Part shown: piece after piece, positions 7,172 through 54,506 of the stretch
How the letters are laid out: each line of letters starts with the position of its first letter
How positions within the stretch are numbered: the stretch's first letter is position 1
IMG/VR virus record: IMGVR_UViG_3300042154_004306
DNA: 64,000 nucleotides
Strand: one strand, 5' to 3'
Source: a virus
Taxonomy: Duplodnaviria > Heunggongvirae > Uroviricota > Caudoviricetes
Notes under the pieces: generated by a model
Told to the model about the DNA's origin: nothing
Database searches by the model: none
The model's input: the letters and a program-made list of their open reading frames with translations, nothing else
Translations under genes and position numbers: made by a program

Positions 7172-7909
7172 ATGGGAAAGTTTGGTAACAGGAGAATACC
7201 TAAATTCATGATGGGAGAGCCGATTCCAGAATCACACGAGGGAAGAGCAATTCATCCGACAATACTATCATTAAGTGGTCATGGCGATGATCATGCCATG
7301 ATCGTAATAAAAACACAGGACGGCCAAGAAGTTGAGTTAAGATTTGACTATGATGGCGATGGAATGTTAACCGCTCAACACGGAGATCACGAATACTCGA
7401 TTCCGGTTGAAGTTGAAATAGTTTCCGGCATGGACGAACTAGATGAAGCAAAGAAAGGTAAACCGGATCATCTAGATTTTGATCAAGATGGAGATGAAAA
7501 GGAATCCATGAAAAAAGCTCTTCAGGACAAGAAAAAAGGCAAGGCTGCAAAAACATTTGAAAGCTTTGTAACCGAATGCTGGAATCCAATGGAAGAAGGT
7601 TACAGTCCAGCAATGTCAGAAGAGGCAAAACAGGCCATCAAGAAAGTTTGCGAAAATATCTTGATTAAAGAGGCTCAAATGTGCGACGAAGATAAGGACA
7701 CAATGCATACGTACGAGAATTACTTAAACGAATGCGGCTCTTACATGACCGAGTGCATGATGGAATCTGCTGCAAACCTAAAGGTTAATGAATCTACTGC
7801 ATACTCTTGCGATACTTGCGGAGAACGTGCAGAACATGAAGAAATCGAAGAGAATCCTAGAATGAGATGCTCTAACTGTGGAGACAGTAACTGGAGCCCA
7901 GAATACTAA
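7172..7909 (+). CDS. Putative internal head protein with DxDxDG motif and C-terminal Zn ribbon
   Basis: KPDHLDFDQDGDEKESMKKA, internal KTFESFVTE motif, CDTC...CSNC. Confidence 0.7.
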   Translation: MGKFGNRRIPKFMMGEPIPESHEGRAIHPTILSLSGHGDDHAMIVIKTQDGQEVELRFDYDGDGMLTAQHGDHEYSIPVEVEIVSGMDELDEAKKGKPDHLDFDQDGDEKESMKKALQDKKKGKAAKTFESFVTECWNPMEEGYSPAMSEEAKQAIKKVCENILIKEAQMCDEDKDTMHTYENYLNECGSYMTECMMESAANLKVNESTAYSCDTCGERAEHEEIEENPRMRCSNCGDSNWSPEY

Positions 7910-7930
7910 CATTGACTAATTAAGTGAATG

Positions 7931-7953
7931 AGCCCGATTCGTCGGGCTTTTTT
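7931..7953 (+). terminator. Intrinsic terminator with UUCG loop
   Basis: AGCCCGA-TTCG-TCGGGCT followed by a T run. Confidence 0.85.
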
Positions 7954-7982
7954 ATTTTGGCTAGACCCGAATAAATAATCCT

Positions 7983-8258
7983 ATGAAAGAACATGCTACA
8001 AATATGGCAAGCAGCACAGGTACAGTACCGGCAGCGGCTTTCACCCAAAGTAATGATCCGAATATTCAACCGTCTCCGATTAATATTCACATGGGTGGAA
8101 TTCCGAATCACTGGTTATCGACCCAGCCAATTTCAAGAAGGGACATGAAAATGAATAATACTCCTGGGATTGGAGCGAACCCAAAGACCTCTAAAGTACT
8201 AACATTCAACGAATTCGTGGATGGAATATTTGAACCTGGTCCAAGCAATGATAAATAA
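7983..8258 (+). CDS. Hypothetical (putative head-targeted) protein
   Basis: Preceded by AATAAATA 7970-7977; C-terminal KVLTFNEFV motif. Confidence 0.65.
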   Translation: MKEHATNMASSTGTVPAAAFTQSNDPNIQPSPINIHMGGIPNHWLSTQPISRRDMKMNNTPGIGANPKTSKVLTFNEFVDGIFEPGPSNDK

Positions 8259-8264
8259 TAAAAA

Positions 8265-8645
8265 TTGACAAATACTATGAGTAATAAACTTTTAAACTTC
8301 GATTCATTCGTAAAAGGTTCTAAATTAGGTGAACCTAAAACTGCACTTGATGTTAAAGCGGCAGCTCCAGTAAAAAAGGAGAAATCAATTGACCAGGTTA
8401 AGCGCGCGAGCCTATCTACTGGAATAAAGTCAACTGAGCCAGATTACACCAAGACTAAGAGCGCTCCAATACAGGAAGCGGCAACTGACACCCAAGCTGA
8501 GATTGATGCAATCAATGCAACTCGTGAACTTAGAAAGGAGCTAGCGACTGCTGATACTGACGACAAACGCCTTTCGATCTTGAATAGAATTAAACAGGTG
8601 CAAACTCAAATAGAGCAAAAGAATAAGGCTAGTAAACCTATCTAA
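8265..8645 (+). CDS. Hypothetical (putative head-targeted) basic protein; ATG at 8277 likely
   Basis: Preceded by GATAAATA 8250-8257; N-terminal KLLNFDSFV motif. Confidence 0.7.
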   Translation: MTNTMSNKLLNFDSFVKGSKLGEPKTALDVKAAAPVKKEKSIDQVKRASLSTGIKSTEPDYTKTKSAPIQEAATDTQAEIDAINATRELRKELATADTDDKRLSILNRIKQVQTQIEQKNKASKPI

Positions 8646-8660
8646 AAATACACAGGTCAA

Positions 8661-9401: not shown

Positions 9402-9408
9402 TTAATAT

Positions 9409-9940: not shown

Positions 9941-11623
9941 TTATAATTGGCCCTTAGCTCCTACTTCTGATGAAGTTTCTCCAGAAGGAGCGGTCTCTGC
10001 TGCTGGGGCAGCAGCAGCACCAGCAGTTGAAGAACCGGTTGCGCCTCCGCCACCAGCAGCAGCTGCAGCTGCGCCTTCAGCCGTAGCTTGATAGCTCTTG
10101 TTCTTAGAGATATCCTCATCGCTAAGCTTCAAGTATTCCTTAATCAAATATTCGGTTGAGAAGTAAGGTTGGTTTTCATCATTAACTACAGCTTTCATTG
10201 CATTAAGGGTCGCAAGACGCTTGTTAAGTAGCTCTTGATTCTTGATTTCTTCAAATACATTATCATCATGCCATGTTAAACCAACAGCATTCGCGAATCG
10301 ATGATCGGACTTAAGGTCTTTCACGTCCAAACACATTTGCAAGTAAAGAGGTTTAGTCATAAGCTCTTTGAATGCTGAACGTAGACGTTTAATAAATTTG
10401 TTGTATCGGATTTCCTCTCTTGAGATTCCTTCAGCATTCATCGTGTAAGATCCTTGATTTTCAGACCAACGAGAATACGGCAATTTAGAATCAAGTTTTA
10501 ACTTATCTTGGAAGTACTTTAAGAGCTCAGAGCCTGATAAGTTTGGTCCAGGATATTCAAGTGCCTCAATCTCGATCGATTCACCACGATCGTTTTTAGG
10601 CAAAACGTAGTTCTTATAGAATAGGATATTTGGCTTACCGTCCACCATTAATTCTCCAGAACTTCCGTCAAACGAAATGTCTTCCTTTAGCGTGTTTGTG
10701 AATTCTCGAACGTCCTCTTTTGCCTTTTGCATTGACTTGGTTCCAACCGGAACAGTTGTCTTTAAACGAATTGGAGCATTCATTGTATGCCAAATGACTT
10801 TAGAATGCTCAATTAAACGTAATAGGTTAAATGAACGAATCAGACGCTCAACGAAACTAACTCGTTTTGTTCTAAATTCGTTTGAGTACGAGATGTAAAT
10901 GATCTGTGAATCGGTCAAGGTACGATTCATTCGATTGATTGGGTCACGTTGAGACCATTGTAGGTAAATACGACCGCTTGAGTCCTTTTTGACTTCTGGG
11001 TAAAGAGTGGATGGATCCAATTCTTTGAAACCAATAATATCCTTGGGGTTGGTCAAGTTATCGTAAATGATTTCAAAAGCCAAGTGACCTTCGATTAGCC
11101 ATTGATAAAAGTACTGCCATGCAGAAATACCTCGGTCAAAGCCCCATGCATTATAGATCTTTTCAAAATTCTCTTGGTACTTGTCCAAGATCTTTTGTTG
11201 GTAATTCAACCTTTCGTCCTTGTTCTTTCCACGATAGTTGATTTCCCCAACCAGGTCGTTTGGATAACAGAAACGATTATCTTGGTCAAATACGATTGCA
11301 TCATCCGCTATTGTTTCAATAATGAATTCAATCTCGCCGTTTGATGCAAGATCACGAAGACGTTCTCTTTTTTGAACGTAATCTAATTGAAAGAATGCAA
11401 TTGACTTGTTCTTGAGTGAAGACGTAGTGTCCGATAGAGCAAGAGTTGCTTTCATTAGGTCATCGCCTAGTGCATTGTTGAATCCAGTTAACTGACCCTC
11501 AATGTAACCAATTGCTTGGGAATTCTTAACGAGTAGATCATCGTACTTCATACCGAATCGGCTGAGTGCGGTTAAACCTGATCTAAGTCCTCTTACTGGA
11601 TTGCTATCTAAAAATCCTGCCAT
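9941..11623 (-). CDS. g20: Portal protein (T4 gp20-like) with Ala/Gly-rich C-terminal tail
   Basis: EIEFIIETIADDAIV, LRLIEHSKVIW, LKYFQDKLKLDSKLPYSR, ISREEIRYNKFIKRLRSAF. Confidence 0.9.
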   Translation of the reverse strand: MAGFLDSNPVRGLRSGLTALSRFGMKYDDLLVKNSQAIGYIEGQLTGFNNALGDDLMKATLALSDTTSSLKNKSIAFFQLDYVQKRERLRDLASNGEIEFIIETIADDAIVFDQDNRFCYPNDLVGEINYRGKNKDERLNYQQKILDKYQENFEKIYNAWGFDRGISAWQYFYQWLIEGHLAFEIIYDNLTNPKDIIGFKELDPSTLYPEVKKDSSGRIYLQWSQRDPINRMNRTLTDSQIIYISYSNEFRTKRVSFVERLIRSFNLLRLIEHSKVIWHTMNAPIRLKTTVPVGTKSMQKAKEDVREFTNTLKEDISFDGSSGELMVDGKPNILFYKNYVLPKNDRGESIEIEALEYPGPNLSGSELLKYFQDKLKLDSKLPYSRWSENQGSYTMNAEGISREEIRYNKFIKRLRSAFKELMTKPLYLQMCLDVKDLKSDHRFANAVGLTWHDDNVFEEIKNQELLNKRLATLNAMKAVVNDENQPYFSTEYLIKEYLKLSDEDISKNKSYQATAEGAAAAAAGGGGATGSSTAGAAAAPAAETAPSGETSSEVGAKGQL

Positions 11624-16214: not shown

Positions 16215-16610
16215 ATGGAAAAAATTGACCAGTTTCTTGAGTATCTGTACATGATTGAAGAAAATACGACTGAACTAACTACTGTGCAGGTTCAAAAACT
16301 CGAGGTTATTAAGGATAGAGTAGCTGATATAGTTAAAAAAGTTGAGATATGCGCAGCAGCCTTAGGTAATTGTAGCACTGAGCCCCAACCAGCAGTCTTT
16401 GCTAAACAATTAGAATTGGCGATTCACGAAAATAAGGTTCATAGCTTTTCGGAGTTTAACGAGATAACTGAAAAGATCGTTAAGCACGGAGATAAATGGG
16501 AAGTAAAGAATAAAAAGGGAACTCAAGTATTGGGAACTCACACAAGTCGTAAAAAAGCAGTAAAGCAATTACAGGCGATTGAAATAAGTAAAGCAAAGAA
16601 TGCTAGGTAG
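16215..16610 (+). CDS. Putative head-targeted protein with basic C-terminal domain
   Basis: Internal KVHSFSEFNE then WEVKNKKG..LGTH.SRKKAVKQLQAIE. Confidence 0.7.
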   Translation: MEKIDQFLEYLYMIEENTTELTTVQVQKLEVIKDRVADIVKKVEICAAALGNCSTEPQPAVFAKQLELAIHENKVHSFSEFNEITEKIVKHGDKWEVKNKKGTQVLGTHTSRKKAVKQLQAIEISKAKNAR

Positions 16611-17364
16611 TAGAATATTTACATTTTCACAATTCATATTGGAGCGAGCGGATCGAGATCTTGGGTCCTACCGCTTGACCAAGCTATCTCAAATACAGGA
16701 CACTGAAGTCATTGATAAATTACAAGAGCTATCGAACGCTTTGAATGAGTTAGAGAACCTGTACTGGTACGCCCGCGAGGGACGCAACGCTCATTACGCG
16801 CTAAACATGAAAATTCATGCATATCCAGAGCTAGAAAAATGGGCAGAGGCAAAGGGTGAAGAAGACCTAGAGGAGGTTGATGATGAAATGATGTATGATG
16901 ACTGGGCTAGGTACATGGAAGAGACTTTTGAAATGCATGCCGAAGACTATAAAGAATCATTCTCATGGATAAGGAAAGTTGGTGCCGGAGGCAAGAGTGG
17001 AGGTTGGCTAATAATCTATCCAGAAACGACTCATGATGATATTGAAAACGATTCATATTTTCTAATTGAAGACTATTTAGACTACGATGAGTCTGCTCTT
17101 ACGCTAGTTAAAGACTTAATGACCAACCTGGATGATACTAATCGACTTGCTGAAATAGGCTTGATTGATGTTGACGACCTTGAGAATGGTAAAAAGGCAA
17201 TGACATTGAGACAGGCTTTACTAAAGCAGATCGATACAGATCTAACAACGCTTACTGAAGTTAAGGAAGACCTGGCAATGATAACTCGTGAAATTGAAAA
17301 CTTTAGAAAAACTGCAGACACTTATTTTTACGAGTGGGTTAGAGATATAAATAAGATAAAATAA
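16600..17364 (+). CDS. Acidic putative head-targeted protein
   Basis: N-terminal RIFTFSQFILE motif. Confidence 0.7.
   Translation: MLGSRIFTFSQFILERADRDLGSYRLTKLSQIQDTEVIDKLQELSNALNELENLYWYAREGRNAHYALNMKIHAYPELEKWAEAKGEEDLEEVDDEMMYDDWARYMEETFEMHAEDYKESFSWIRKVGAGGKSGGWLIIYPETTHDDIENDSYFLIEDYLDYDESALTLVKDLMTNLDDTNRLAEIGLIDVDDLENGKKAMTLRQALLKQIDTDLTTLTEVKEDLAMITREIENFRKTADTYFYEWVRDINKIK
17346..17353 (+). promoter_or_regulatory. T4-type late promoter TATAAATA
   Basis: Exact consensus upstream of 17376. Confidence 0.65.
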
Positions 17365-17375: not shown

Positions 17376-18065
17376 ATGAAACACGTTAGACTATTCGAAG
17401 AATTTATAGCTGAAAACCAGCTAGAATTCGATTTTGATAGCAAGCCTAAAGCGAATCGTGAATTTAACCCTGATGAAGTGGATAGGTTAACATCACTCGG
17501 TATGCCAATGAGTAAAACATTCAGATTCGAGTCACAAATATTCATTAGCTTGGACTACCAAAGCTGGTTTGAGAGCGCTTCACAATACGGAGTTGATGAA
17601 TTCGTGAGCCAGGCTCAGGATCTTGGATTTGATTTTAGTTACGAGTATAGACAATACCAAGATGAAGAAATTGATGAGGATGAATTCTTTGACGCAGCTG
17701 AAGAAGAAATTAGGAGAGCAGGCGATTTCAACGAGCCGTTATCTTACCAAGGAGTCGTTGAGGCTCGTGATTTTGAAGATGATCTAGTTAATGACTTTAA
17801 TGAATCTACACTTGAAGAGTATTCAGATGTTCCAGGAGTTGAAACGATTAGAGCAAAAGGAGTAACTAGGGAAGGTAATTTTGTAGTTGAAGTCGTTGCA
17901 CAATCTGATCTTGACATTGAGGCAATGAAAGAAGAATTAGCAGGCCAATACGCTGATGGTTGGGGAGAGGGCTATGAGCAGCGGGACCATGAGGTAGACG
18001 ACGTAACCTATTACGTTCATACCTGGAGAGATAGAGGCTTTGAAATAAAGTTAGTTAACCCTTAA
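17376..18065 (+). CDS. Acidic putative internal head protein
   Basis: N-terminus MKHVRLFEEFIAE resembles the T4 capsid targeting sequence MKTYQEFIAE. Confidence 0.75.
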   Translation: MKHVRLFEEFIAENQLEFDFDSKPKANREFNPDEVDRLTSLGMPMSKTFRFESQIFISLDYQSWFESASQYGVDEFVSQAQDLGFDFSYEYRQYQDEEIDEDEFFDAAEEEIRRAGDFNEPLSYQGVVEARDFEDDLVNDFNESTLEEYSDVPGVETIRAKGVTREGNFVVEVVAQSDLDIEAMKEELAGQYADGWGEGYEQRDHEVDDVTYYVHTWRDRGFEIKLVNP

Positions 18066-21753: not shown

Positions 21754-23646
21754 ATGGCAGGACTATCACATTTAAGAGACGTTTATGAAAAGCGTGGCAA
21801 GGAGTTCTTGGAGAATCTCCTTAATAAAACCGTCATCATTAACGAAAAAATAGAAGGCGCCTACTTTGGTGCAAAAAGAGATGCAAGTACAGATAAATTT
21901 AATTTCTTTAAAAAGGACAGCAAAATTAGCTACATCGACCGGGTTCTTAGTAAGTACTACGAACCGGGCGTTAAACATTTTGAGAGCCTTGGGAGTGATA
22001 CCGTAAAATCATTACCTGAAAATTATGTATTTGGATTCGATTATACCCCAGGTAGAGCGAATCCGCTAACAATAAGCCACATTAAAGTCCTAGATGAGAA
22101 CTATCAAACGGCTAGCGTAATTCACGACAGGGAAGAACTTAATAAATGGGCAGGCTCCCTAAACGTTAATCAGCCAGCGATTCTTTTCCAAGGAAAGTTG
22201 TCTGAAGATCAGCAAGTAAAGATCCAAGAGTTCATTTTTACCCCATTGGAAAAGCTATCGGAGAAGTTTAAGACCGAATCATTCACTAAGCATCTCATAT
22301 CGATACTTAGCCCAACAGTCGATGAAAATTCTCAAAATTCGGTGGACGATCGTTCGATCGATGAAGTTGTATTTAGATTCTACGATGCCGAATCAACAAT
22401 GGACGATTCGGCAGTACTGGCCAAATTAGTGGATCCAGTATTCTACGATAATTCAAAGAACTTACCTAAACCTCAAGTTGGTAAAAAGAGCGATGATTAC
22501 ATTTGGATAATCGTGAGCGACTTAATGAATTTCATTGAGAGTTACAGACTTTCGGACCTACGAGCATTCACCATTTCTGGAGAAACGGTTGAAGAGAGAT
22601 TTGTATCTCTGCTTAATCATCTATTCGTAGAATTCATTCATGAATATGGAGACAAGTACAGCGATCTTGATATTCAAGTTCCAGATTTCTTGAAACGTGA
22701 AGAATTTGACATTAACTCGGACTTAGTAAACGATCCGATCGTCATACCTATCCTACAAGAGAATCCTAACTACAAAGAAATATACAGAGTTTTTGTTAAT
22801 ACATTCCGTAAAAAGAAGGTTAAAATCAGCTCTCCGATATTTACGGAGTCAATGAAAGCTAATCTCATTTCCCAAATCGAGAAATTAAATCAGGTTGCAA
22901 TGGGAGAAAAACTATACGAGAATTACTTTCCGTCGTTTAGCGAATTCGTTGGAGATGAAAAGGCTCCAGGCTATTTCGAAACTTATGATTTAGAACAGGG
23001 AGAGCAGCGTAAAGTTAAAAAGGTAAATTTGTTAATCTCAGAATTTCAGCCAATCCACAAAGGCCATAGCAAAACAGCAAAGGCATTAACTGAAAAAACT
23101 GGAGTACCAACCCTTCTGGTCTGCATTCATCCAGGCAAACAGACAAAACAATTTCCATTTAAAAAGGAAACCCTAAATAATGCGCTTAATAAATTAGCAG
23201 CAAGCGATGCTCAGAATATTACAGGACACGTAGTGATCAGTGATGGAAACGTTGAGAGTATTCTTAAATCAATTAAACCTCAATACGAACCGCTGTCAAT
23301 TGCAGCAGAGCCTAGTAGAATAAAAGATATTGCTTTACAACTTGAATTGGCTAAGAAAAGATCAAGAAACTTGAATATTAAAAGAGATACTAAACTGATT
23401 GAAATTGCACTAGACTCAGTATCGGAGACAATCTTAAATTCAATAAAAGAAAAGAATTACGGTACCTATAAGGAATACACGCCGTCATCAGTCCATTCAG
23501 AATTCTATAACCTAAATAAGGATTTAATGGAATCAATAACTGAGAGTATTAATCATCCTAATGTGACTACTAATGAAACAGATGAATCCTATCCCGAACC
23601 AATAATACATATTGAAGCGCATAAAACATTTCAAAGAATACTATAA
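21754..23646 (+). CDS. Fusion of a ligase-like nucleotidyltransferase domain and a HIGH-motif cytidylyltransferase-like domain
   Basis: N-terminal INEKIEG (KxDG-like); C-terminal FQPIHKGH; internal SFSEFV motif between the domains; preceded by AATAAATA 21740-21747. Confidence 0.55.
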   Translation: MAGLSHLRDVYEKRGKEFLENLLNKTVIINEKIEGAYFGAKRDASTDKFNFFKKDSKISYIDRVLSKYYEPGVKHFESLGSDTVKSLPENYVFGFDYTPGRANPLTISHIKVLDENYQTASVIHDREELNKWAGSLNVNQPAILFQGKLSEDQQVKIQEFIFTPLEKLSEKFKTESFTKHLISILSPTVDENSQNSVDDRSIDEVVFRFYDAESTMDDSAVLAKLVDPVFYDNSKNLPKPQVGKKSDDYIWIIVSDLMNFIESYRLSDLRAFTISGETVEERFVSLLNHLFVEFIHEYGDKYSDLDIQVPDFLKREEFDINSDLVNDPIVIPILQENPNYKEIYRVFVNTFRKKKVKISSPIFTESMKANLISQIEKLNQVAMGEKLYENYFPSFSEFVGDEKAPGYFETYDLEQGEQRKVKKVNLLISEFQPIHKGHSKTAKALTEKTGVPTLLVCIHPGKQTKQFPFKKETLNNALNKLAASDAQNITGHVVISDGNVESILKSIKPQYEPLSIAAEPSRIKDIALQLELAKKRSRNLNIKRDTKLIEIALDSVSETILNSIKEKNYGTYKEYTPSSVHSEFYNLNKDLMESITESINHPNVTTNETDESYPEPIIHIEAHKTFQRIL

Positions 23647-27010: not shown

Positions 27011-28565
27011 TATGTTTTTAAAAGTAAAAAGACTGCAGTCAATTCAAAGCCTGATTCTAGAAGCGGATCTCATCCAAATCGGAGGTCAGATTGATAACTT
27101 GGTGGACAAGGATCGGAAATCCGGCAGCGAAGACGGCAAGAGCAAGGAGGATCCTAACGAAATGCTTAATAGATTATTGGACGCTCTTTTTGCAATGGGC
27201 GAGGACGATCTAAATTCGAAACTGGACGATCCGGCGTTTGACCGGTACTTCGGTAATCCAAAAATGAAAGCGGTTTTAGACAGTTATTTCGCTTACTTGA
27301 CCGAGAGAGTTGCAGAATTCCGTAAAAACCTAGAAGAGGCCCTATCTAAAAAGGAAGTCAATGAGGTTGAAATCGAAGAAATAAGTCGTAAGATTTTTAC
27401 GTTTGTTGCAAGGATTCATGTTCTTGAAAAGATTTATGCTAAGTTAGACAGCAAAGGCACAACTGATTTTAGCGGAGAAATTTACGAAACGATTAAAAAG
27501 GTGCAGGATGATTTAGCTGAGGCATTCTCTTTAAAGATTAAAATTCCAGCCAAAATAGCACAACAAGCCTATGCTAACTTTGAACAGGCCGAAACTGAGG
27601 AAGCCCAAAAAGAAGCAGCAACCGAAGTATTTGATGCAATTCACACAGCCGAGGTAATCACGGACGACATGTCTGATGAACTTACTTCAGGTATCCAAGC
27701 AGCAGACAAAGAATATGAGGCTAAAATAGACGCAAAATTGGGAGCTGGCACCTCAGCTGACCTAAAAAGCGGACTATTCATTAACAAGAACACTGCATCT
27801 ATAATTAGAAGAATCTTTCAATTTCAATACACAAACTGGACAAATGAAGCCGATATTATCCGAGAAGCAAATGCGCTAAAGGTGAGTATTAACGGATTTC
27901 CGGACGTATCTGACGAAGCTAAAGAATACTTAGTTAAAATGGTTGATGGAATTCAAAAGAGTCTTATCGAAAGAGCCAAAAGCAAAGAATTTGAAACCAA
28001 GAAATACAAGGGAATTCATTATGATTTCGATAAGAAATTACCATTATATGAAAGAACTGCTCTACCGGTTACAGGAAAGCAGATCGCAGATGATACAAAG
28101 ATAATGAAGTTCAGAAAAGCTTCTCAAGCACTAATGGGACTTGTATTTGGAGAAGATACTACAGGAAATACGGCAGCCGGTCAAGCGTTTGCTAAAACCG
28201 GTAAACACCTACATACGCTGTATGCTAAAACTTTGAATACTACAGCGAAGGCAGTAGGTAAAGCGGTTAAGGGCAGAGAAGGCGAAATGAAAGCGGATGC
28301 TTACTCTAGACTCTTTATCTTAGACACATCGGTAGTTGACGAACCCAAACCTAAAGCAGTTACTGAGGAAGGCGAAGCCCCTGGAGTTACTCCACAGGTT
28401 CCAGGCTCAATAGGCTCAATGGGACCAATCACTCCACCGACTCAAAATACGATAGGCTCAGGCGATAAATTCGTTTCGCTTGGTGGCAATACTAAAAAGA
28501 AAAAGAAGAAGTCTTCATCCGTATTGGGATTCGCAGATTTTATAAAAGAACAAAATAACAGATAA
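26964..28565 (+). CDS. Large helical putative virion protein (ATG at 27011 more likely)
   Basis: Long ORF with C-terminal Pro/Gly segment, poly-Lys and VLGFADFIKE motif. Confidence 0.75.
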   Translation: MIQLTRLNIYYNLKPNMFLKVKRLQSIQSLILEADLIQIGGQIDNLVDKDRKSGSEDGKSKEDPNEMLNRLLDALFAMGEDDLNSKLDDPAFDRYFGNPKMKAVLDSYFAYLTERVAEFRKNLEEALSKKEVNEVEIEEISRKIFTFVARIHVLEKIYAKLDSKGTTDFSGEIYETIKKVQDDLAEAFSLKIKIPAKIAQQAYANFEQAETEEAQKEAATEVFDAIHTAEVITDDMSDELTSGIQAADKEYEAKIDAKLGAGTSADLKSGLFINKNTASIIRRIFQFQYTNWTNEADIIREANALKVSINGFPDVSDEAKEYLVKMVDGIQKSLIERAKSKEFETKKYKGIHYDFDKKLPLYERTALPVTGKQIADDTKIMKFRKASQALMGLVFGEDTTGNTAAGQAFAKTGKHLHTLYAKTLNTTAKAVGKAVKGREGEMKADAYSRLFILDTSVVDEPKPKAVTEEGEAPGVTPQVPGSIGSMGPITPPTQNTIGSGDKFVSLGGNTKKKKKKSSSVLGFADFIKEQNNR

Positions 28566-28569
28566 TAAA

Positions 28570-29181
28570 ATGAAAATTATTAAAACATTTGAAAGCTTTT
28601 TTAGTGAGCCAAACGATCATGAAATGATGCCGCACCAATTCTCAACCGATAAAGTCGATCATGATGATCACCATAAAGTTGAGAACTACATGCTTTTCGG
28701 AAACTTGGAAACAATCCAAAGATTGACTGAGATCATGTTAAAAATGGATCCAAGAAAAGTAGATCAAATTTTAAAGAACGGGCATAGTTGGGCGGTAGAT
28801 CATATTGCTACATCAAAGGATGATATTGAAGAAGTTGCTAACTTTCTAATTGGTGAAATGAATGAGAATATTGAAGAAGGTATTCACGATAGAGATATTA
28901 CAGCAGCCTCTCATACAAACGTAAAAGGAACGATGGGAGATTATGATCCTAAGGCCAGAGCAGAGAATTTAGCTAAGTTAAAAAACTTTGGGCCTAAGGG
29001 AAAATACTCTGACCGTAAACGCCGTTCTGAACATAATGACAGAATGTCTGATAATCCAGAGAATGAAGAGTACATGGCCGAAGGTAGTTACACATGCAAT
29101 GAATGTGGAACCTCTTATGAAGCGGCTGTTATAAATGAAGGTGACGTATGCGAGTGCGGAGGTTCACTAAATAAAGAATAA
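28570..29181 (+). CDS. Putative internal head protein with C-terminal Zn ribbon
   Basis: MKIIKTFESFFSE; CNEC...CECG. Confidence 0.7.
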   Translation: MKIIKTFESFFSEPNDHEMMPHQFSTDKVDHDDHHKVENYMLFGNLETIQRLTEIMLKMDPRKVDQILKNGHSWAVDHIATSKDDIEEVANFLIGEMNENIEEGIHDRDITAASHTNVKGTMGDYDPKARAENLAKLKNFGPKGKYSDRKRRSEHNDRMSDNPENEEYMAEGSYTCNECGTSYEAAVINEGDVCECGGSLNKE

Positions 29182-29184: not shown

Positions 29185-29748
29185 ATGCAAAGACTCGTAA
29201 AATCATTTAGTCAATTTAATGAATCTCTGGTATCAGAGAGCCTACTCTATCATATAGATGAAGGTATTTCAATAGCTGAGTCAGTATATCGTCCAGCAAG
29301 TCAAGCTCATTTTGAGCTCCTGGCTGAAGCTAGAACAGCCTACTCCAGAGGAGAGATTAAACTTACTGGAATTGATCAGATTTTATTTGAAGAGACTGAC
29401 CTTGGAAGATTTGGAGAATATCGAGGTGAGATTGTGCCGTTGGACTTTTTATTTGAAGCAGAGTATCACGGAAAGACCGTTGAGACTGGCAAGCCAATGA
29501 GAGGCGGAACAAAAAAGTATTACGTTTACGTCGTTAATCCAAAAACTAAAAAGGTTAAAAAAATTGCATTCGGAGACGTCCATGGTGGATTAACTGCAAA
29601 AGTAAGCAATCCTAAAGCTCGTAAAAGTTTTGCAGCAAGACATCAATGTCATCTAAAAAATGACAGAACCACTGCCGGTTACTGGGCATGCAGAATTAAC
29701 AGATACGCTCATCTATGGGGCGGTAAAACATATCCAGGATTTTGGTAA
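29185..29748 (+). CDS. Putative internal head protein with basic Cys/His C-terminal domain
   Basis: MQRLVKSFSQFNE; ARKSFAARHQC...GYWAC. Confidence 0.7.
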   Translation: MQRLVKSFSQFNESLVSESLLYHIDEGISIAESVYRPASQAHFELLAEARTAYSRGEIKLTGIDQILFEETDLGRFGEYRGEIVPLDFLFEAEYHGKTVETGKPMRGGTKKYYVYVVNPKTKKVKKIAFGDVHGGLTAKVSNPKARKSFAARHQCHLKNDRTTAGYWACRINRYAHLWGGKTYPGFW

Positions 29749-30019: not shown

Positions 30020-30360
30020 AATTCTCAATCGGAGACAGAATTATGATTAAAGCGGACGCGGAAGAGCTACAAAACGGCGTCATTGAAATGGTAGACGGTA
30101 CAACCGGTACCATTTCTGAGATTTATCAAAACAGCTATGAGCCCGATGTCGATCGATTTGAAGTTGAACTGGATGAACCGATTGAATATAATGGAGATCG
30201 AATTAGAATTGTGCCGGGTCTGTATTCTGACAATATTGAATTGATCAAGAGCAGAAAGACTGCTGCTGAAAAAACAGGCAGATCTAGCAAAAAGAGAATT
30301 AACGAGAGATATGCAATGTCTTTCGCGGATCTAGTAAAAAAAGAAGGTCTAAAGAAGTAA
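30016..30360 (+). CDS. KOW/SH3-like protein
   Basis: KFSIGDRIMIK...GTTGTISEI; C-terminal AMSFADLV motif. Confidence 0.6.
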   Translation: MKFSIGDRIMIKADAEELQNGVIEMVDGTTGTISEIYQNSYEPDVDRFEVELDEPIEYNGDRIRIVPGLYSDNIELIKSRKTAAEKTGRSSKKRINERYAMSFADLVKKEGLKK

Positions 30361-47199: not shown

Positions 47200-49191
47200 T
47201 TGAGTAGTACTAAAATCGCTAACCTAAACCAAACGGTCATTCCTGAAAATTCGGTGTTTATCATTGAAAGAATTAACGAGGCCGTTACTGTAACCAAAGA
47301 ATCTAACGGTGACGTTATTCTTGAAGGTACTGCTGCCGTTTTTGGAGTCGTAAACGAAAATAACCGTGTATACGAAAAGAATGAGTACTTACCTCACCTA
47401 CAGTATCTAAACAAGAAGATTGAAGAGCGCAGACTCTTTGGTGAACTTGATCATCCACAAAAATTTGATATTTCCTTAGCTAACGTATCTCACGTAATCG
47501 AAAGTCTTAGTTACGATGAAGGTTCCAACAGCGTAAAGATTAGACTACGACTTCTTGATACTCCATGCGGAAAGATCGCAAAGACTTTAGTTGAAGCTGG
47601 CTGTACAACATCAGTATCATCTAGAGCAGCAGGTAATGTTGATCAGAACGGTAAGGTTAAACTACATAAGATATTCACTTACGATCTAGTAGCTGAACCC
47701 GGTTTCTCACAAGCTTCGTTATCTCAGGTATCTGAAAGCCTACAAGGAAGTTTCTCAGCGATTTTTGAATCTTTAGATAATCTAAAGACTACGGCAATTA
47801 CCAACAAATTAATGGATATTTCTGAAAACTTCAATTTTGAAGATTCTGTGAGAATCTATAAAATAAATAATTCTGAAACAACCCCTAAACAAAATAATAC
47901 ACAGCAAATGGCTAATGAGTTTGTAACAAAAGACGAGATGAACCAATACTCTGAATTGGTTAAAAAGAAGTTTTCAACTTTACAAGAGAGCATCTCCAAA
48001 AACAATAAAGGTCTTCAAAAGATCTCTGAAAACGCTTCAACTGATGAATCACCAGTAGTTTCGAAAATGGTTGAGTACGTAAACTACTTAGCTGGCGAAA
48101 TGGAAAGCCTAGTTGAATACACTAACTATCTTTCAACTATGATGAATCAGGGTGTTAATTACACTGAGCATGTTGCAGAAAAAGTAAACAATGTAATTGA
48201 CTACTCTGACTACTTGGGAGACAAAGTTCAAAAGAACATTGCCTACTCTGATTACTTAGGTAAAAAAGTAAATGAAACAGCTAACTATGCTGAATACGTT
48301 GCAGAAAACGTTGAAAAAACAGTAGAGTACACAAACTACTTAGCTGAGAACGTTGACCTAAGCATTCAATATGCTGAGCACGTTGCAGAACACGCTGAAA
48401 ATGGAATCAAATTCTCTAACTACTTAGCTGAGAATCTTGATGCAACAATCCAATACTCTAACTACTTAGGAGAAAACTTAGATAAAGGTATCAAGTATTC
48501 TAGCTATATTGCTGAATCTTTAAATGAAAAAATGATTCCTGGAGCAACCGCTAAAACACGTTCTCTATTGGGAGAGGTTAAAAAATTAAATGAAAGTGCT
48601 AATTTTGAAATCTCTGAAACTTCATCAGTAGATGATCTAGTTAATGCAGTTGACGGTATCTTAACTCATATTAAATCCAATACAGCTCACGCAATTTTAG
48701 AAAGCAAATATCCTTTCTTGAAGCTGTTAAGCGAATCTAGAAAACAGGCTTTCTATAACTTAGATCAAACGTCTAAAACCGCAATCGTTGAGACAATGAG
48801 AGGTGCTATCTTCTTCACAGAAGACGAAGTAGTTAATATCATGGAAGCGGTTCTTAACAAGCAGGTTGAAAACACTCCTAACTACGTTAAATTCATGCCT
48901 GCTCAATACAAAGAAGTATACGAAAGCATGACAGACGGTGAAAAAAATTGGATTTCAGCACAAGCTAATAATATGGCGTTGAACACTCCATACCAAGTTA
49001 AAGCCTTCTGGGATTCACGTAATCTTAGAGGAATTAGTGAAAGAATTGCGACTCAAGCAAATATAAATAATCAAACAATTAACGAAAACCAAGGTAAAGA
49101 AGGTTATGTCTCGTTAAAACAAGTCAATGAAGGACTAAGAGGCTACTCTAATTCTTACATTGAAATGCTCCAAAGAAGAGCACAAAACTAA
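47200..49191 (+). CDS. g21: Prohead protease (gp21-like) fused to scaffold/core protein (gp22-like)
   Basis: NENNRVY, GELDHP, VSSRAAG, TYDLVAEPG followed by a long repeat coiled coil. Confidence 0.9.
   Translation: MSSTKIANLNQTVIPENSVFIIERINEAVTVTKESNGDVILEGTAAVFGVVNENNRVYEKNEYLPHLQYLNKKIEERRLFGELDHPQKFDISLANVSHVIESLSYDEGSNSVKIRLRLLDTPCGKIAKTLVEAGCTTSVSSRAAGNVDQNGKVKLHKIFTYDLVAEPGFSQASLSQVSESLQGSFSAIFESLDNLKTTAITNKLMDISENFNFEDSVRIYKINNSETTPKQNNTQQMANEFVTKDEMNQYSELVKKKFSTLQESISKNNKGLQKISENASTDESPVVSKMVEYVNYLAGEMESLVEYTNYLSTMMNQGVNYTEHVAEKVNNVIDYSDYLGDKVQKNIAYSDYLGKKVNETANYAEYVAENVEKTVEYTNYLAENVDLSIQYAEHVAEHAENGIKFSNYLAENLDATIQYSNYLGENLDKGIKYSSYIAESLNEKMIPGATAKTRSLLGEVKKLNESANFEISETSSVDDLVNAVDGILTHIKSNTAHAILESKYPFLKLLSESRKQAFYNLDQTSKTAIVETMRGAIFFTEDEVVNIMEAVLNKQVENTPNYVKFMPAQYKEVYESMTDGEKNWISAQANNMALNTPYQVKAFWDSRNLRGISERIATQANINNQTINENQGKEGYVSLKQVNEGLRGYSNSYIEMLQRRAQN
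48073..48534 (+). repeat. 11 x 14-aa coding repeat (xYxxYLAExxxxxx)
   Basis: EYVNYLAGEMESLV ... KYSSYIAESLNEKM, with a 42-nt period. Confidence 0.9.
49062..49069 (+). promoter_or_regulatory. Internal late promoter TATAAATA for the major capsid gene
   Basis: Exact consensus inside the scaffold gene, about 140 nt upstream of the capsid ATG. Confidence 0.55.
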
Positions 49192-49210: not shown

Positions 49211-50932
49211 ATGGCAACAAAAATTTTCAAAAGATTGAACGATGCTTCAATCAAAGAAACATGGGCTCCAGTTTTAGAAGGTTATGGCGCAGACATTAAA
49301 GCTCGTCCTTGGTTAGTTGACTTAGCTCACAACCATGCTATCTTCGATAACGCAGGTTCATTAAACGAGGCATTAGCTTCAGGTTCAGCTCCAGGTTTGT
49401 TCCTGCAACAACCGGGTTCAATCAGCGCAATGGGTGCAATCTCTGCTCCTACTAGCGGAATGACTCCGTTCACTGGTGGTGGTGCTACTAAAGCAGGTTA
49501 CGGCGCAAGCGTATCAGGTTCTGGTGATAAATTCCCAAGCCTTTTACCGGTGGCTATCCAAGTTGCTGCTAAAACTATTGGTTTCGACCTAGTTGGTGTA
49601 GTTCCTATGGATTCTCCAGTAGGTTTCTTACCTTATTTGGATTATGTATACCAAGGTGGTAATTTAGACACTCAATATGAGCCGTTCTTAGTTAAATTAT
49701 CTTCTGCAGTCAATACAGGTATCACAATAGGTGATTATATCCAAGGTGATACTGGTAATGCGGCTGCTGCATTCAAATTCCAATACGTTGGAAAATCTCG
49801 TGTAGACGGTTTACCAATCCTTAAAGTGGTTCAAGGTGGAACAACTGATTCATCTACTACTACAGTAGCTGATGCGGTTGCTGCTCTTGATAACGTTACT
49901 CGCACAGGTACTCGTACTGATACTAGTGCCGCTGCTGCTGGTACAACGGCTAATCCTTGGTTAGGATTCGGAGGTGCTGATGGTATGACAGTTACTTTGG
50001 TATCTGCACTAGAAAACCATATCTCTGGTTTCACTTCAGAAAGTGATGCTGACTATGCATCAACTGCATTTGATGGTCCTTTCTTAGGAGCTACTGGTTC
50101 TCAAGCTAACTTCGATGGAATGACTCGTGCTACAGCTGAGGTTTCTAAATTCCGTCAAATGGGTCTTCGTATGTTCACTAAGTTCATCGAGGCTAAAGGC
50201 GACCAAATTGCTATCTCTGCAACAGTTGAGCAAATCCAAGATCTTAACAGAGTTTGGAACTTCGATGTAATCTCTATGTTGGAAAACGTAGCAGTTAACG
50301 AACTTGCTCAATCTATCAACAAGAAATTGGTTGACAGAGTATTAACTTTAGGAGCTACTCACAAAACTTCTCTTGAAGCGGTTGAAGGTGCTGACATCTG
50401 TACCCTTAACCTAACTGTAGGTTCAACTGGTTTCGAGAACATCTCAACACTACAACGTCGTGTTGTAACCAAAATTCTTGAAATGGCTAACTTGATTTAT
50501 CATAGAGGTCGTTTTGGTGCTGGTACTTACATCGTGACTAATGGTCGTGTTGCATCTGCTCTTGCTGATGTTGCTGGTTACTCTTTTGCTCCATTCAATA
50601 ATGATCTACCTTCTACTCCAGGTCAATTATATCCTGCAGGTAAAGTACACGGTTTAACCATCTACGTAGATCCTAACTTGAAGTTCAGCGATAACCGTAT
50701 CCACATCGGACGTAAAGGTGCTGACGAAGAACCAGGTGTTAAATTCTTACCTTACATCATGGCTGAGTCTCTTCAAACTATCGCAGAGGGAACTTTCTCT
50801 CCTAAGATCGGTATGAAGTCTCGTTATGCAATCACTGAGGCTGGATGGCACCCTGAAACACAATACATCACATTGACTGTTGACGGTCTAGGTGTATTGA
50901 CTGGTTCAAACCGTCCTTCTGCTTCTTACTAA
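49211..50932 (+). CDS. g23: Major capsid protein (T4 gp23-like)
   Basis: WAPVLE, IGFDLVGVVPM, ELAQSINKKLV, GRFGAGTYIV, FLPY, PKIGMKSRY. Confidence 0.95.
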   Translation: MATKIFKRLNDASIKETWAPVLEGYGADIKARPWLVDLAHNHAIFDNAGSLNEALASGSAPGLFLQQPGSISAMGAISAPTSGMTPFTGGGATKAGYGASVSGSGDKFPSLLPVAIQVAAKTIGFDLVGVVPMDSPVGFLPYLDYVYQGGNLDTQYEPFLVKLSSAVNTGITIGDYIQGDTGNAAAAFKFQYVGKSRVDGLPILKVVQGGTTDSSTTTVADAVAALDNVTRTGTRTDTSAAAAGTTANPWLGFGGADGMTVTLVSALENHISGFTSESDADYASTAFDGPFLGATGSQANFDGMTRATAEVSKFRQMGLRMFTKFIEAKGDQIAISATVEQIQDLNRVWNFDVISMLENVAVNELAQSINKKLVDRVLTLGATHKTSLEAVEGADICTLNLTVGSTGFENISTLQRRVVTKILEMANLIYHRGRFGAGTYIVTNGRVASALADVAGYSFAPFNNDLPSTPGQLYPAGKVHGLTIYVDPNLKFSDNRIHIGRKGADEEPGVKFLPYIMAESLQTIAEGTFSPKIGMKSRYAITEAGWHPETQYITLTVDGLGVLTGSNRPSASY

Positions 50933-51051: not shown

Positions 51052-51417
51052 ATGAGCAAATCAGTTTTAAGCTACGGCGAATTTCTTTTTGAAAAGAAGT
51101 CAATCGATCAACACATGGCAGACATGCCTAAAGGTAAAGGTTCTAAGTTTAACAAGTCAGTAGACGCTAAAACTTCAGATCTTCCTAAAGGAAATGGTCG
51201 AGCAATCAGCAAATCAGTTAAACCGGAAATGGCAGGCCTGCCTAAAGGTAAAGGTAAAGCAATCAGCAAATCAGTTGATGTAAAAACTTCTAAATTACCT
51301 ACTTCTAAAGGTAGTTCGATTAATAAACAAGTTGAACCTAAGATGGCTAAATTGGTTATCAAAGGAAAGGCTATCAACAAGAAAGTTGAGCCTAGCATGG
51401 CTAAAATGCCTAAGTAA
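51052..51417 (+). CDS. Lys-rich 19-aa repeat protein, putative packaged DNA-binding protein
   Basis: N-terminal SVLSYGEFLFE then about 6 repeats of KSVxxxxxxLPKGKGxxxx; preceded by AATAAATA 51009-51016. Confidence 0.75.
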   Translation: MSKSVLSYGEFLFEKKSIDQHMADMPKGKGSKFNKSVDAKTSDLPKGNGRAISKSVKPEMAGLPKGKGKAISKSVDVKTSKLPTSKGSSINKQVEPKMAKLVIKGKAINKKVEPSMAKMPK

Positions 51418-51435: not shown

Positions 51436-51741
51436 ATGAAAGATCAAAACAAGCATAAGGTTCAGTCCTTTCAAGCTTACCTGATTCAGGAAAATTCTAT
51501 CAAAGACTTGGTCGGAAAGACTGAAGATGAGGAATTGGACTTGGATGATGCGCGAAGCATTGGAAAGAAAATCTCTAAAATGAAGGGTGCAGACCGTAAG
51601 AAGTACGTTGGAATCGTTAATTTCATGGGGGCTTCTTGCAGAATCTATAATGAAATTTGGGCCAACTACAAACCGGTCGACCCAACTAGAAAGAAATCTA
51701 ACCGTGGAAAAGAATTTCAGGGAGAAAAAGAAATTGGATAA
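51436..51741 (+). CDS. Putative head-targeted protein
   Basis: KVQSFQAYLIQE near the N-terminus. Confidence 0.7.
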   Translation: MKDQNKHKVQSFQAYLIQENSIKDLVGKTEDEELDLDDARSIGKKISKMKGADRKKYVGIVNFMGASCRIYNEIWANYKPVDPTRKKSNRGKEFQGEKEIG

Positions 51742-51744
51742 GAA

Positions 51745-52869: not shown

Positions 52870-52889
52870 CTAAAAAATAAAGACATAAG

Positions 52890-53474
52890 ATGGCAGGTCT
52901 ACCACATTTTAAAAATTCAACAGCAGGTCCAGGTAAGTACGAACCTATTTACCTTAACCAGTTCGAGGTTATCATTACCCCGCCGCCTGCAGTGTCTGGA
53001 AAAATCGGTTTCGGTAATAATCTAATGCTTGAACACGTATTGAAAGTAACAAGTTTACCAGAATACGCAGGTTCAGGATCAGCCGTAGTTATTCAAAACT
53101 ATAAATTCTCACAAAGAACTTACGCACCATCAAAACCATCGCAAACATATCATCAGTTCACAATTGAGTTTGAGGTTAACTTAAACAATAGTAACGATAT
53201 GTACATTTACAACGCGTTAAGATCATGGGCGGATTTAATCTATAATCCATTAACTGGTCGTCAAGGACTAAAAACTGACTATGCGGATGCAAGCATTCAA
53301 GTAACTCAGTTCAACCGAGCAGGTTTAATCTTTAGAGATTTCATGTTCTCTCCAGTATTCATTGGACCAGCTAAAATGACTGAAACTGCACTTGATTACA
53401 CAAGTGAAGGTATCTATAAGTTAACTGCACAGTTCACAGCGGATTCTTACACCGAATCAAGAATTGGACAGTAA
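52890..53474 (+). CDS. g19: Tail tube protein (T4 gp19-like)
   Basis: 194 aa; EPIYLNQFEVII, FTIEFEVNL, LRSWADLIY; preceded by AATAAATA 52861-52868. Confidence 0.8.
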   Translation: MAGLPHFKNSTAGPGKYEPIYLNQFEVIITPPPAVSGKIGFGNNLMLEHVLKVTSLPEYAGSGSAVVIQNYKFSQRTYAPSKPSQTYHQFTIEFEVNLNNSNDMYIYNALRSWADLIYNPLTGRQGLKTDYADASIQVTQFNRAGLIFRDFMFSPVFIGPAKMTETALDYTSEGIYKLTAQFTADSYTESRIGQ

Positions 53475-53494
53475 AAATAATCATCTATAAAAAT

Positions 53495-54160
53495 ATGGAC
53501 ATGTTCAACACTAAAGACCGACGTAATCCTTCGATGGATGATTACATGGATCCTAAGAAACCTAGTTTCGGAGGTCCAACATCAAAGAAAGACTTTGATA
53601 CATCAAAACGAGAAACACTAAAAGGCTATCAACGAGTTATTGACCGAAATGCCGATTTTGAAGGTGGAAAATTCAACCACAATTATGACCCAACATGGAA
53701 GGCGGTAACTCGTGACCTAATTTCAAGAACGGCAAAGAAAAAACCATTTAACCCAATGTACGCAAAACAAACAATTGCAACGGTTAGCGCTGTTGAAGAA
53801 GGAAGAATACTTCGCTTTGACCAATTCGTTAACGAAGATTTTAACATGTTCGCTGAGGCAGAAGAAGAAATGCCAGAAACCGATGACTCTATGCTGTCTG
53901 ACGACGATATGCCGTCTGATGAGCCAGTAATCGACGAAGAACAATTAGCCACTTTAATGGAAGAATTTGGAGATGACATTAACGATGTCATTGAAGATAT
54001 CGCTGAAAAGATGGAAATGACAAAAGAAGACATTTGCGACCTAGTATGCGCAGCCGTTAAGAAACTTTGCACAGAAGAAAGCGATGATGACGAAAATGAA
54101 GAAGATGATGACGCTATCGGAGACGACGCAGAAAACAACGAAGACGAAGAAAACTCATAA
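53495..54160 (+). CDS. Putative head core protein with highly acidic C-terminal half
   Basis: Internal RILRFDQFVNE motif followed by an Asp/Glu-rich tract. Confidence 0.7.
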   Translation: MDMFNTKDRRNPSMDDYMDPKKPSFGGPTSKKDFDTSKRETLKGYQRVIDRNADFEGGKFNHNYDPTWKAVTRDLISRTAKKKPFNPMYAKQTIATVSAVEEGRILRFDQFVNEDFNMFAEAEEEMPETDDSMLSDDDMPSDEPVIDEEQLATLMEEFGDDINDVIEDIAEKMEMTKEDICDLVCAAVKKLCTEESDDDENEEDDDAIGDDAENNEDEENS

Positions 54161-54167
54161 TTAGAGA

Positions 54168-54506
54168 ATGATCAAGTTATTTGAACAATGGTTAGCTGAG
54201 GAAGCTATGGAGACTGCTCAAAACACTGAGGAGCCTACTAAGACTGGGTCATATACTCTAGACATCACAGTTGACGGAGAATCTTTTGAAGTTGAAGGAA
54301 CTAGTGATAGTGAATTCACAAATAAGGAGATGATTTCTTTTAATGTGATCAAATCAACTAATCCGAGCATCAACCCTGGTGCACTCATTTCGATTTCGCC
54401 AAAAGCGGATAAGGATGGAGATTTTGACATTGTTGCGGTTAATGACCAGAACAAACCAGAAGATGCATTAATTTATTCAGGAAAGGTTGAGAAATCTAAA
54501 ATGTAA
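54168..54506 (+). CDS. Putative head-targeted protein
   Basis: MIKLFEQWLAEE. Confidence 0.7.
   Translation: MIKLFEQWLAEEAMETAQNTEEPTKTGSYTLDITVDGESFEVEGTSDSEFTNKEMISFNVIKSTNPSINPGALISISPKADKDGDFDIVAVNDQNKPEDALIYSGKVEKSKM

Follow-up and report, generated by a model that had tools for sequence, protein, structure and literature searches.

Phage T4 possesses a capsid targeting sequence (CTS), MKTYQEFIAE, which is cleaved off and which packages foreign proteins when fused to them (PMC8442874; PMC3012670; PMC5694885). Such sequences are 10-20 residues long, and the propeptide of the T4 capsid protein gp23 comprises 65 residues (PMC5694885). The T4 protease gp21, whose catalytic residues are H85 and S140, prefers I/L-x-E sites (PMC12991175). 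In phiKZ, 201phi2-1 and SPN3US, long N-terminal propeptides of head and ejection proteins are cut after x-x-Glu by gp21-related proteases; these giant-phage propeptides exceed 100 residues and are thought to be CTS-like (PMC5694885). Here we describe a recurrent peptide motif with the core h-x-x-Ar-x-x-Ar-[VIL]-x-E (h, hydrophobic; Ar, aromatic) in a 64,000-nucleotide (nt) stretch of DNA of a Caudoviricetes virus, IMG/VR record IMGVR_UViG_3300042154_004306. This stretch, referred to below as the window, was taken from the 180,030-bp record (estimated completeness 67%) and reads its bases 52100-116099 on the reverse strand. Most copies of the motif form leaders of 11-19 residues, mostly ending in Glu, at the N-termini of unrelated proteins. 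Judged from its sequence, the motif is real and under selection as a peptide module, agrees with the signal for capsid targeting and cleavage in T4, and probably marks an unusually large set of packaged proteins.

N-terminal leaders and their likeness to the T4 signal

Gene calling by codon-usage score yielded 214 genes over the whole 180-kb contig. The pattern [VILM]..[FY]..[FYW][VILFN] is found within the first 22 amino acids (aa) of 23 of the 214 encoded proteins, as opposed to 2.75 in shuffled sequences, with 7 at most, and 2-4 in 22-aa windows taken elsewhere in these proteins. A stricter, Glu-ending expression has 20 N-terminal matches where 4.2 are expected, and two on reversed proteins. 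When all Met-initiated starts of open reading frames (ORFs) on the contig were scanned with a position weight matrix (PWM) of the leaders, 22 matches of at least 12 bits were obtained among 1291 candidates. About 25 of the called contig proteins, representing some 12% of the genes, carry an N-terminal leader of at least 11.6 bits, and 10 of these are encoded within the window. Most leaders end in [VILF]-x-E or [VIL]-x-x-E, the exceptions being those of genes 8265 and -1034 (genes are named here by the window position of their first base).

The initial annotation had listed 16 proteins in the window with the motif at N-terminal, internal or C-terminal positions, and all 16 quoted strings are present in the named ORFs at such positions. 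Because circularity had to be avoided, these sites were scored with an independent PWM of 10 columns, whose training set consisted only of the 13 leaders encoded outside the window. Nine sites (17376, 28570, 16600, 29185, 53495, 7172, 16215, 54168 and 7983) reach at least 11.6 bits, where no more than 0.6 windows are expected in the whole window proteome, and six of the nine reach at least 15.7 bits (0.01 windows expected). Four sites are borderline (51052, 9.9 bits; 26964, 9.3; 21754, 8.9; 8265, 7.7), and 30360, 51436 and 30016 score at chance level. Despite these scores, 30360 and 51436 were accepted because they are N-terminal and conserved in orthologues, which leaves 30016 as the one outright failure. 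The claim of a shared motif is upheld in part, by the N-terminal enrichment and by nine of the 16 sites, whereas two of the listed members, 21754 and 30016, are unsupported (see below). The remark that the motif had not been seen in replication enzymes or glycosyltransferases agrees with our scan, in which no match of at least 9 bits was detected in the window's replication or glycosyltransferase-like genes.

The likeness to T4 was computed. A matrix built from the leaders of this phage assigns 18.7 bits to the leader MKTYQEFIAE of the T4 internal proteins (IPs) IPII and IPIII and 12.3 bits to that of IPI. Among 1580 Met-initiated T4 ORFs of at least 40 aa, the leader PWM scan gave five matches in the T4 genome, with IPIII, IPII and IPI at ranks 2, 3 and 5; the remaining places in the top five are taken by gp61.1 (rank 1) and an internal Met of uvsW. 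The best match of the same PWM in T4 gp23 covers residues 56-65, the end of the 65-residue propeptide. Since the matrix ranks the T4 IPs at the top and its best gp23 match ends at the cleavage site, the motif equals the T4 pattern, with aromatic residues at P7 and P4, an aliphatic residue at P3 and Glu at P1. As in T4, an N-terminal leader of 10-20 residues with the arrangement h-x-x-Ar-x-x-Ar-[IL]-x-E, ending in a gp21-type I/L-x-E site, stands on otherwise unrelated proteins. In contrast to T4, where ipII and ipIII share an identical 30-nt leader and the carriers are mainly small basic proteins, the leaders of this phage show no DNA-level identity to one another, and their carriers include enzymes and acidic proteins.

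To follow the motif through evolution, orthologues were collected from 172 related loci, each in the neighbourhood of a capsid, portal or 26964 gene. In 12 of the 13 testable families (26964 being represented by a single sequence), the aromatic pair is retained in 94-100% of the orthologues of at most 75% identity; other aromatic residues of the same proteins are retained in 59-92% in most families. This column-level retention is informative, whereas conservation of the motif window relative to the rest of the protein is not (median percentile about 0.5). Behind conserved leaders, protein bodies are swapped or carry inserts. Pairs of leaders share the codon for the same residue at a frequency of 0.484, compared with 0.476 expected from codon usage, and similarity beyond the motif is limited to two pairs among 37 carriers. 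Selection acts on the peptide, since the leaders share codons no more often than chance predicts and their carriers are unrelated by paralogy. The motif might in principle be an artefact of composition, of paralogy, of repeated DNA or of misassigned reading frames; in favour of this, the genome is AT-rich and many proteins start with MK. However, shuffled sequences, reversed sequences and other windows yield far fewer matches, only two pairs of the 37 carriers are similar, codons are shared as codon usage predicts, the AT-rich Bacteroidota phage PTm1 has a single match, and the orthologues retain the motif, so that an artefact is extremely improbable. A DNA-level repeat or recombination site, paralogy and composition are excluded by the codon test, the carrier comparison, and the shuffle and PTm1 controls, respectively.

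The leaders of the window, all on the plus strand, differ considerably in their strength and in the proteins behind them. Leader MKHVRLFEEFIAE (17376..17414; 19.9 bits) begins a 229-aa protein (17376-18065), is conserved in 8 orthologues and has the box ATAAATA 22 nt upstream; its last five residues are identical to the end of the T4 CTS. Leader MLGSRIFTFSQFILE (16600..16644; 17.6 bits) belongs to a 254-aa protein (16600-17364), in whose orthologue alignment M1, F9, F12 and E15 do not vary even at 24% identity. Leader MKIIKTFESFFSE (28570..28608; 17.6 bits), on a 203-aa protein (28570-29181), is conserved down to 45% identity. It is followed by leader MQRLVKSFSQFNE (29185..29223; 16.8 bits) on a 187-aa protein (29185-29748). 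Six orthologues of the latter keep the leader and the C-terminal body with a domain of about 150 aa inserted right behind the leader, which is domain shuffling at the leader boundary. The acidic 112-aa protein 54168 starts with MIKLFEQWLAE (54168..54200; 12.4 bits), and no other window of this protein is better conserved (99th percentile).

Other leaders are recognized mainly through their relatives. Leader MEKAIESFKSYLITE (30360..30404) of a 183-aa protein (30360-30911) is weak with the independent PWM and scores 11.7 bits with the full one; its aromatic pair is retained in 80-90% of distant orthologues. Leader MSKSVLSYGEFLFE (51052..51093), on a basic 121-aa protein encoded directly 3' of the capsid gene, rises to 15.9 bits with the full PWM, is conserved in 33 orthologues down to 38% identity and has ATAAATA 35 nt upstream. 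Leader MKDQNKHKVQSFQAYLIQE (51436..51492) starts a 101-aa protein (51436-51741) and has the aromatic pair in 13 of 13 distant orthologues; in two orthologues the pair is separated from a conserved ENSLKDLVGK block by about 60-70 inserted aa, and in others a 60-aa N-terminal extension turns the motif internal. Finally, the protein called at 8265-8645 in fact starts at the ATG at 8277, because its orthologues begin at that Met. Its leader MSNKLLNFDSFVKG (8277..8318) has no Glu behind the motif and scores 7.7-12.5 bits from the independent to the full PWM, and its aromatic pair is invariant in orthologues. Pfam and PHROGs assigned no function to the ten tagged proteins of the window, and a protein-atlas search with 16600 and 17376 gave no usable match.

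Head genes, late-type boxes and a predicted route into the prohead

Like T4, this phage encodes a homologous S77 protease and a Gp23-family capsid protein. The protease is part of a 663-aa prohead protease-scaffold fusion (47200..49191, plus strand), in which an S77 (gp21-type) domain at approximately residues 24-173 is followed by helical repeats and a C-terminal helical domain; in T4, by comparison, protease and scaffold are not fused. The N-terminus of the fusion matches Pfam Peptidase_S77 at 40.6 bits (cut-off 27) and aligns with T4 gp21 by BLASTP (E = 2e-11), with His85 and Ser140 lining up; both residues are invariant in 23 orthologues. The major capsid protein gene is located at 49211..50932 on the plus strand (Pfam Gp23, E = 3e-42) and the portal protein gene at 9941..11623 on the minus strand (phrog_213, E = 3.5e-65).

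Of 24 leader genes, 11 (46%) have the box ATAAATA, which resembles the T4 late promoter TATAAATA, in the 80 nt before their start, versus 29 of 190 other genes (15%; Fisher p = 0.001), in line with the earlier statement that many tagged genes lie downstream of such promoters. The protease-scaffold and tail sheath genes and a gene that weakly matches head closure (Hc2) have it 17-29 nt upstream as well, and it is likewise found in front of genes 7172 and 7983. Several leader genes are situated directly behind another leader gene, so they may be co-transcribed.

We consider it probable that the motif is this lineage's T4-type CTS joined to a gp21-type cleavage site, a signal that would load cargo into the prohead core and be trimmed after Glu. 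In the proposed mechanism, the leader would be an amphipathic helix of 11-19 residues at the N-terminus of unrelated proteins and would bring its carrier to the scaffold core while the prohead assembles, docking it there. Cutting after Glu by the S77 domain of the protease-scaffold protein would then release the leader, with the cargo staying with the DNA and possibly being injected along with it. The sequences show the motif, its enrichment and conservation, its match to the T4 CTS and the gp23 cleavage site, and the protease, scaffold and capsid genes; docking, cleavage, packaging and injection are inferred from them. The tagged-cargo interpretation proposed in the initial annotation retains the T4 likeness, the S77 protease, the Gp23 capsid protein, the scaffold genes and the conserved sites away from the N-terminus; it loses the enzyme fusion 21754, the 30016 site and the C-terminal class. 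Should the tag work as it does in T4, sequence alone would suffice to list the proteins that uncultured huge phages package and probably inject. This set, at about 25 proteins per 180 kb with an AAA+ ATPase and a deoxyribonucleotidase among them, would by far surpass that of any studied phage in size and variety and would provide a direct list of candidate first-minute effectors, for example anti-defence or takeover proteins. The CTS concept would then widen from a T-even curiosity to a lineage-wide system, and the leaders would be ready-made tags for loading cargo into large capsids, with gp61.1 as a candidate in T4 itself.

Another feature shared with the leaders resides in the scaffold part of the fusion protein and has no counterpart in T4. 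Residues 290-445 (48064..48537, plus strand) consist of eleven tandem 14-residue repeats, [IV]-x-Y-[ST]-[NED]-Y-[LV]-[AG]-E-x-[VL], which have the aromatic-x-x-aromatic-aliphatic-x-Glu core of the leaders and whose Tyr positions are invariant in the orthologue alignment. An AlphaFold2 model of the protein, of low confidence (pLDDT 51) and used for secondary structure only, has long helices at 285-443. The leader PWM assigns the repeats -8 to +7.3 bits against a background of -12.1 ± 5.2, placing all 11 of them 0.8-3.7 standard deviations above it; the hydrophobic residue that precedes the core occupies -2 in the repeats and -3 in the leaders. A protease site or a packing helix common to repeats and leaders, or the two combined, may account for the core that they share.

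A bolder version of the packaging reading is that one portable helix of about 10 residues serves as a general address label for the capsid interior, whether N-terminal, internal or near-C-terminal, docks on the protease-scaffold repeats and is cut by the same protein, such that at least a tenth of the proteome, enzymes among it, would be packaged, trimmed and delivered with the DNA in huge T4-related Bacteroidota phages. We advance this generalization tentatively and regard it as rather less than an even bet.

Several observations weigh against assigning the motif to capsid targeting. The number of carriers, about 25 per 180 kb or some 12% of the genes, far exceeds the handful in T4. The terminal Glu is missing in some instances (8265 and, in this phage, 7983), and C-terminal sites as a class are not enriched (5 versus 2-4). 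The top T4 match, gp61.1, comes from an uncharacterised ORF not known to encode a head protein; it could be a CTS protein that has so far escaped notice, or could indicate that the motif also occurs outside head proteins. Two of the strongest leaders of the contig (69866-70483 and 73633-74358) are in a nucleotide-metabolism cluster without ATAAATA upstream, and the presence of a tagged deoxyribonucleotidase in an apparent ribonucleotide-reductase cluster lacking the box calls for caution towards a simple picture of late head genes. In addition, a PWM derived from 324 repeat units did not retrieve the leaders from the proteome (4 of the top 40), and T4 gp22 scanned with the leader PWM has no such motif (best 3.3 bits). 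Because of these last two results, the idea that the leader copies a scaffold unit draws only on the short shared core and is put forward as a hypothesis.

The same T4 gp23 match, at a maturation cleavage site, would be expected if the motif were just an extended S77 recognition site (aromatic P7 and P4, aliphatic P3, Glu at P1) and not a targeting signal, the carriers reaching the prohead otherwise or being activated by cytoplasmic processing, and the internal sites representing polyprotein junctions. The scaffold repeats, whose degradation is expected, have this core with an L-[AG]-E ending, the internal sites described below are positioned at domain junctions, and gp21 expressed alone can act on non-capsid substrates (PMC12991175). 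However, the same ten-residue T4 sequence suffices to package foreign proteins (PMC8442874; PMC3012670), the residues upstream of I/L-x-E are as conserved as the site itself, and 8265 and 7983 retain the aromatic pair in the absence of Glu. A pure cleavage site is therefore an unlikely explanation.

Tagged proteins are mostly without assigned function, and those encoded outside the window include an AAA+ ATPase and a 5'-3' deoxyribonucleotidase. The latter (phrog_2643; 69866-70483 in window-relative numbering, minus strand; contig bases 45617-46234) bears the top leader of the contig, MSSNLKSFTQFVNE (23.9 bits), and a second strong leader is found nearby on the protein at 73633-74358 (minus strand; contig bases 41742-42467). 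The ribonucleotide-reductase cluster around the deoxyribonucleotidase gene was judged from the N-terminal sequences of the neighbours only. In T4, gp61.1 is a hypothetical protein of 54 aa encoded beside the primase gene (NC_000866, 18966-19130); it starts with MKTFKEFIKE and scores 20.0 bits.

Carriers of this kind raise the question of a tag for some other phage machine, such as a degron or a chaperone-recruitment helix addressed to the AAA+ ATPase encoded at 4398-6383 (Clp/Lon-like, or ClpA/Lon-like), the DnaJ-domain protein at 46242-47135 or a GroEL-like chaperonin. Chaperone and protease genes are indeed encoded on the contig, some carriers are enzymes in early-looking clusters, and the T4 gene for gp61.1, with its motif, is in an early region. 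Nothing ties the motif to the AAA+ ATPase, the DnaJ protein or the GroEL-like protein, however, and its strong quantitative match is to the experimentally defined T4 CTS; moreover, the box common to structural genes is enriched upstream of leader genes, and tagged genes adjoin the capsid and portal genes. We consider a tag of this type improbable, more so than a pure cleavage site.

Internal, near-C-terminal and rejected copies

The initial annotation regarded the motif as independent of position. This view is sustained in part: because internal (53495, 7172, 16215) and near-C-terminal (7983) copies are conserved across orthologues, the motif is not strictly N-terminal, whereas C-terminal sites lack enrichment as a class. 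The departure from the T4 model, in which such conserved copies have no equivalent, is confined to these four families. Internal sites are modestly enriched as a class, with 9 matches of at least 12 bits versus 1.4 expected; one of the nine is really an N-terminal leader behind a mis-called TTG start.

In the 221-aa protein of gene 53495, the motif RILRFDQFVNE (53804..53836, plus strand; residues 104-114; 16.8 bits) joins a basic N-part with an isoelectric point (pI) of 9.5 to an acidic tail (pI 4.05; 46 Asp or Glu residues in 107 aa). Thirty orthologues, reaching down to 40% identity, have it at the same residue, 108, with scores of 12.7-22 bits, and F108, F111, N113 and E114 vary little or not at all. 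The most distant orthologues stop just behind the motif. An AlphaFold2 model of low confidence (pLDDT 58) places the motif in a short helix within a mostly disordered protein. The protein of gene 7172 (245 aa) has AKTFESFVTE at residues 126-135 (7547..7576, plus strand; 15.7 bits), and ATAAATA is found 21 nt upstream of the gene. Here the motif divides a length-variable N-part, ranging from about 125 to 284 aa in distant orthologues, from a conserved Cys-rich C-domain of 110 aa, and it is present in 94% of those orthologues. Similarly, KVHSFSEFNE (16434..16463, plus strand; residues 74-83 of 131; 12.5 bits) in the protein of gene 16215 lies between an N-part that varies and resembles a coiled coil and a conserved C-domain of 50 aa (phrog_3684, matched from residue 71 onwards), and its aromatic pair is invariant in 12 distant orthologues. 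This protein has a second leader-like sequence, MEKIDQFLEYLYMIE, at its start (16215-16259, plus strand).

The best reading of these three internal copies, although we hold it with less than even confidence, is that they are processing junctions, at which the module would mark a long propeptide or the junction of a two-part polyprotein. Their layouts fit cleavage junctions of the kind known from the long phiKZ-type propeptides: the motifs end in Glu at residues 83, 114 and 135, and cutting at internal motifs (residues 75-130) would release propeptides about as long as those. Unlike the phiKZ-type propeptides, which use a short A/S/G-x-E site and have no common leader, the proteins described here share a 10-residue motif and have mostly short propeptides. 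If the tag acts as in T4, the conserved internal copies would show that the signal is a portable module that extends beyond an N-terminal propeptide.

Alternatively, internal and C-terminal copies could be relics of gene fusion, in which a stop codon was lost before a second, leader-bearing gene, and would no longer act as signals. Leader genes are organized in tight tandem arrays, the N-parts in front of internal motifs vary greatly in length, the motif of the 51436 family is N-terminal in some relatives and internal in others, and C-terminal sites lack enrichment as a class. Against this stand the 53495 motif, whose key residues and position are held nearly constant in its 30 orthologues, and the excess of internal matches over expectation. 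Fusion relics are a somewhat unlikely source of these copies, slightly behind the processing junctions.

The near-C-terminal copy, KVLTFNEFVDG (8193..8225, plus strand; residues 71-81 of 91; 11.6 bits), is encoded by gene 7983-8258. In all orthologues the motif lies 8-24 residues from the C-terminus, with scores of up to 20.1 bits. It closes a conserved 80-aa module, and in some relatives this module is the C-terminal end of enzyme-like proteins of 264-488 aa. Because the module ends such proteins in relatives, an enzyme-plus-tag form with a C-terminal tag appears to exist in the lineage, only not in the gene that was originally named. The larger proteins are encoded in related loci L140 (14113-15534), L138 (17931-19397) and L148 (4683-5477), in each case on the minus strand. 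Those of L140 and L138 begin with a DxDxT (HAD-like) sequence, and the 473-aa L140 protein has a cytidylyltransferase-like domain in its body (Pfam, 23.1 bits); a BLAST comparison of this L140-type enzyme with the 21754 protein revealed no similarity.

Terminal tags are also familiar from other shells. The C-terminal tail of the HK97 maturation protease and the cargo-loading peptides of encapsulins are cases in which a short peptide suffices to load an HK97-fold shell, with tags at either end of the cargo. Such tags attach to the shell protein, and no Glu-specific protease cleaves them off. Their sequences are unrelated to the leaders described here, and we claim no homology.

Three further C-terminal or internal sites had been listed initially. 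SVLGFADFIKE (28518..28550, plus strand; residues 519-529 of 533) is borderline, at a score where 3.2 windows are expected by chance; it is unchanged in its single orthologue, of 64% identity. It belongs to the ORF 26964-28565, which ends in a run of six Lys followed by the motif. The true start of this ORF is probably farther downstream, because the called TTG start overlaps the preceding ORF (26555-27010) by 47 nt. PSFSEFVGDE (22930..22959, plus strand), in the 630-aa protein 21754 with a cytidylyltransferase-like domain, had been proposed as a tagged enzyme fusion; 4.2 windows are expected by chance at its 8.9 bits, the available orthologues are all at least 92% identical, and we reject it as unsupported. 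AMSFADLVKKE (30313..30345, plus strand), at the C-terminus of the 114-aa protein 30016, scores -1.6 bits and is lost or changed in orthologues of 48-59% identity, and it was likewise discarded as a C-terminal instance.

Lineage and related phages

The closest GenBank relatives of the capsid protein, at 26-37% identity, are from uncultured huge phages (LR756500.1, 37%), Lak megaphages, Sphingomonas phage PAU and Tenacibaculum phage PTm1, and megablast of the window region against GenBank phages gave no match. In IMG/VR, by comparison, there are many relatives at 61-92% capsid identity, with complete genomes of 250-271 kb. The lineage fits the aquatic 'moraphages' of Bacteroidota (PMC12619734), and the phage probably belongs to the same broad lineage. 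As in moraphages and huge phages such as LR756500.1 (Al-Shayeb et al. 2020), it combines a prohead core protease, a DnaJ protein, a Clp-type ATPase and T4-like structural genes, and its complete relatives are of 250-270 kb. Leaders are not mentioned in the moraphage paper, the text of which does not contain 'N-terminal' (PMC12619734; other huge-phage papers were not searched for such terms), and among the listed papers with the phrase 'capsid targeting sequence' none dealt with huge, jumbo or mega-phages of this type.

Among the other genes of the window are a split DNA polymerase and a helicase. The DnaJ-domain gene (Pfam DnaJ, E = 2e-26) is located directly 5' of the protease-scaffold gene. 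A PfkB-family sugar kinase-like protein (6383-7147; Pfam, E = 2.7e-17) is encoded between the AAA+ ATPase gene and the portal-adjacent tagged genes, and the GroEL-like protein, judged from its N-terminal sequence, is encoded outside the window at 84272-85855 on the minus strand.

In PTm1, checked as a cultured relative, the F-x-x-F leader family is absent, with one match of at least 12 bits. This phage also fuses the prohead protease to the scaffold (AP019524.1, 217853-219547), with Trp-based repeats (E-x-W-I...F-T-K-E-L-S-E-G-I-E-K-W). The distant LR756500.1, by contrast, has 20 leader matches of at least 12 bits in 398 kb, with the consensus MKYIKEYEEFLNE. It is a published huge phage of 462 kb with a GC content of 24%, in which several leader ORFs are arranged in tandem around 313-323 kb.

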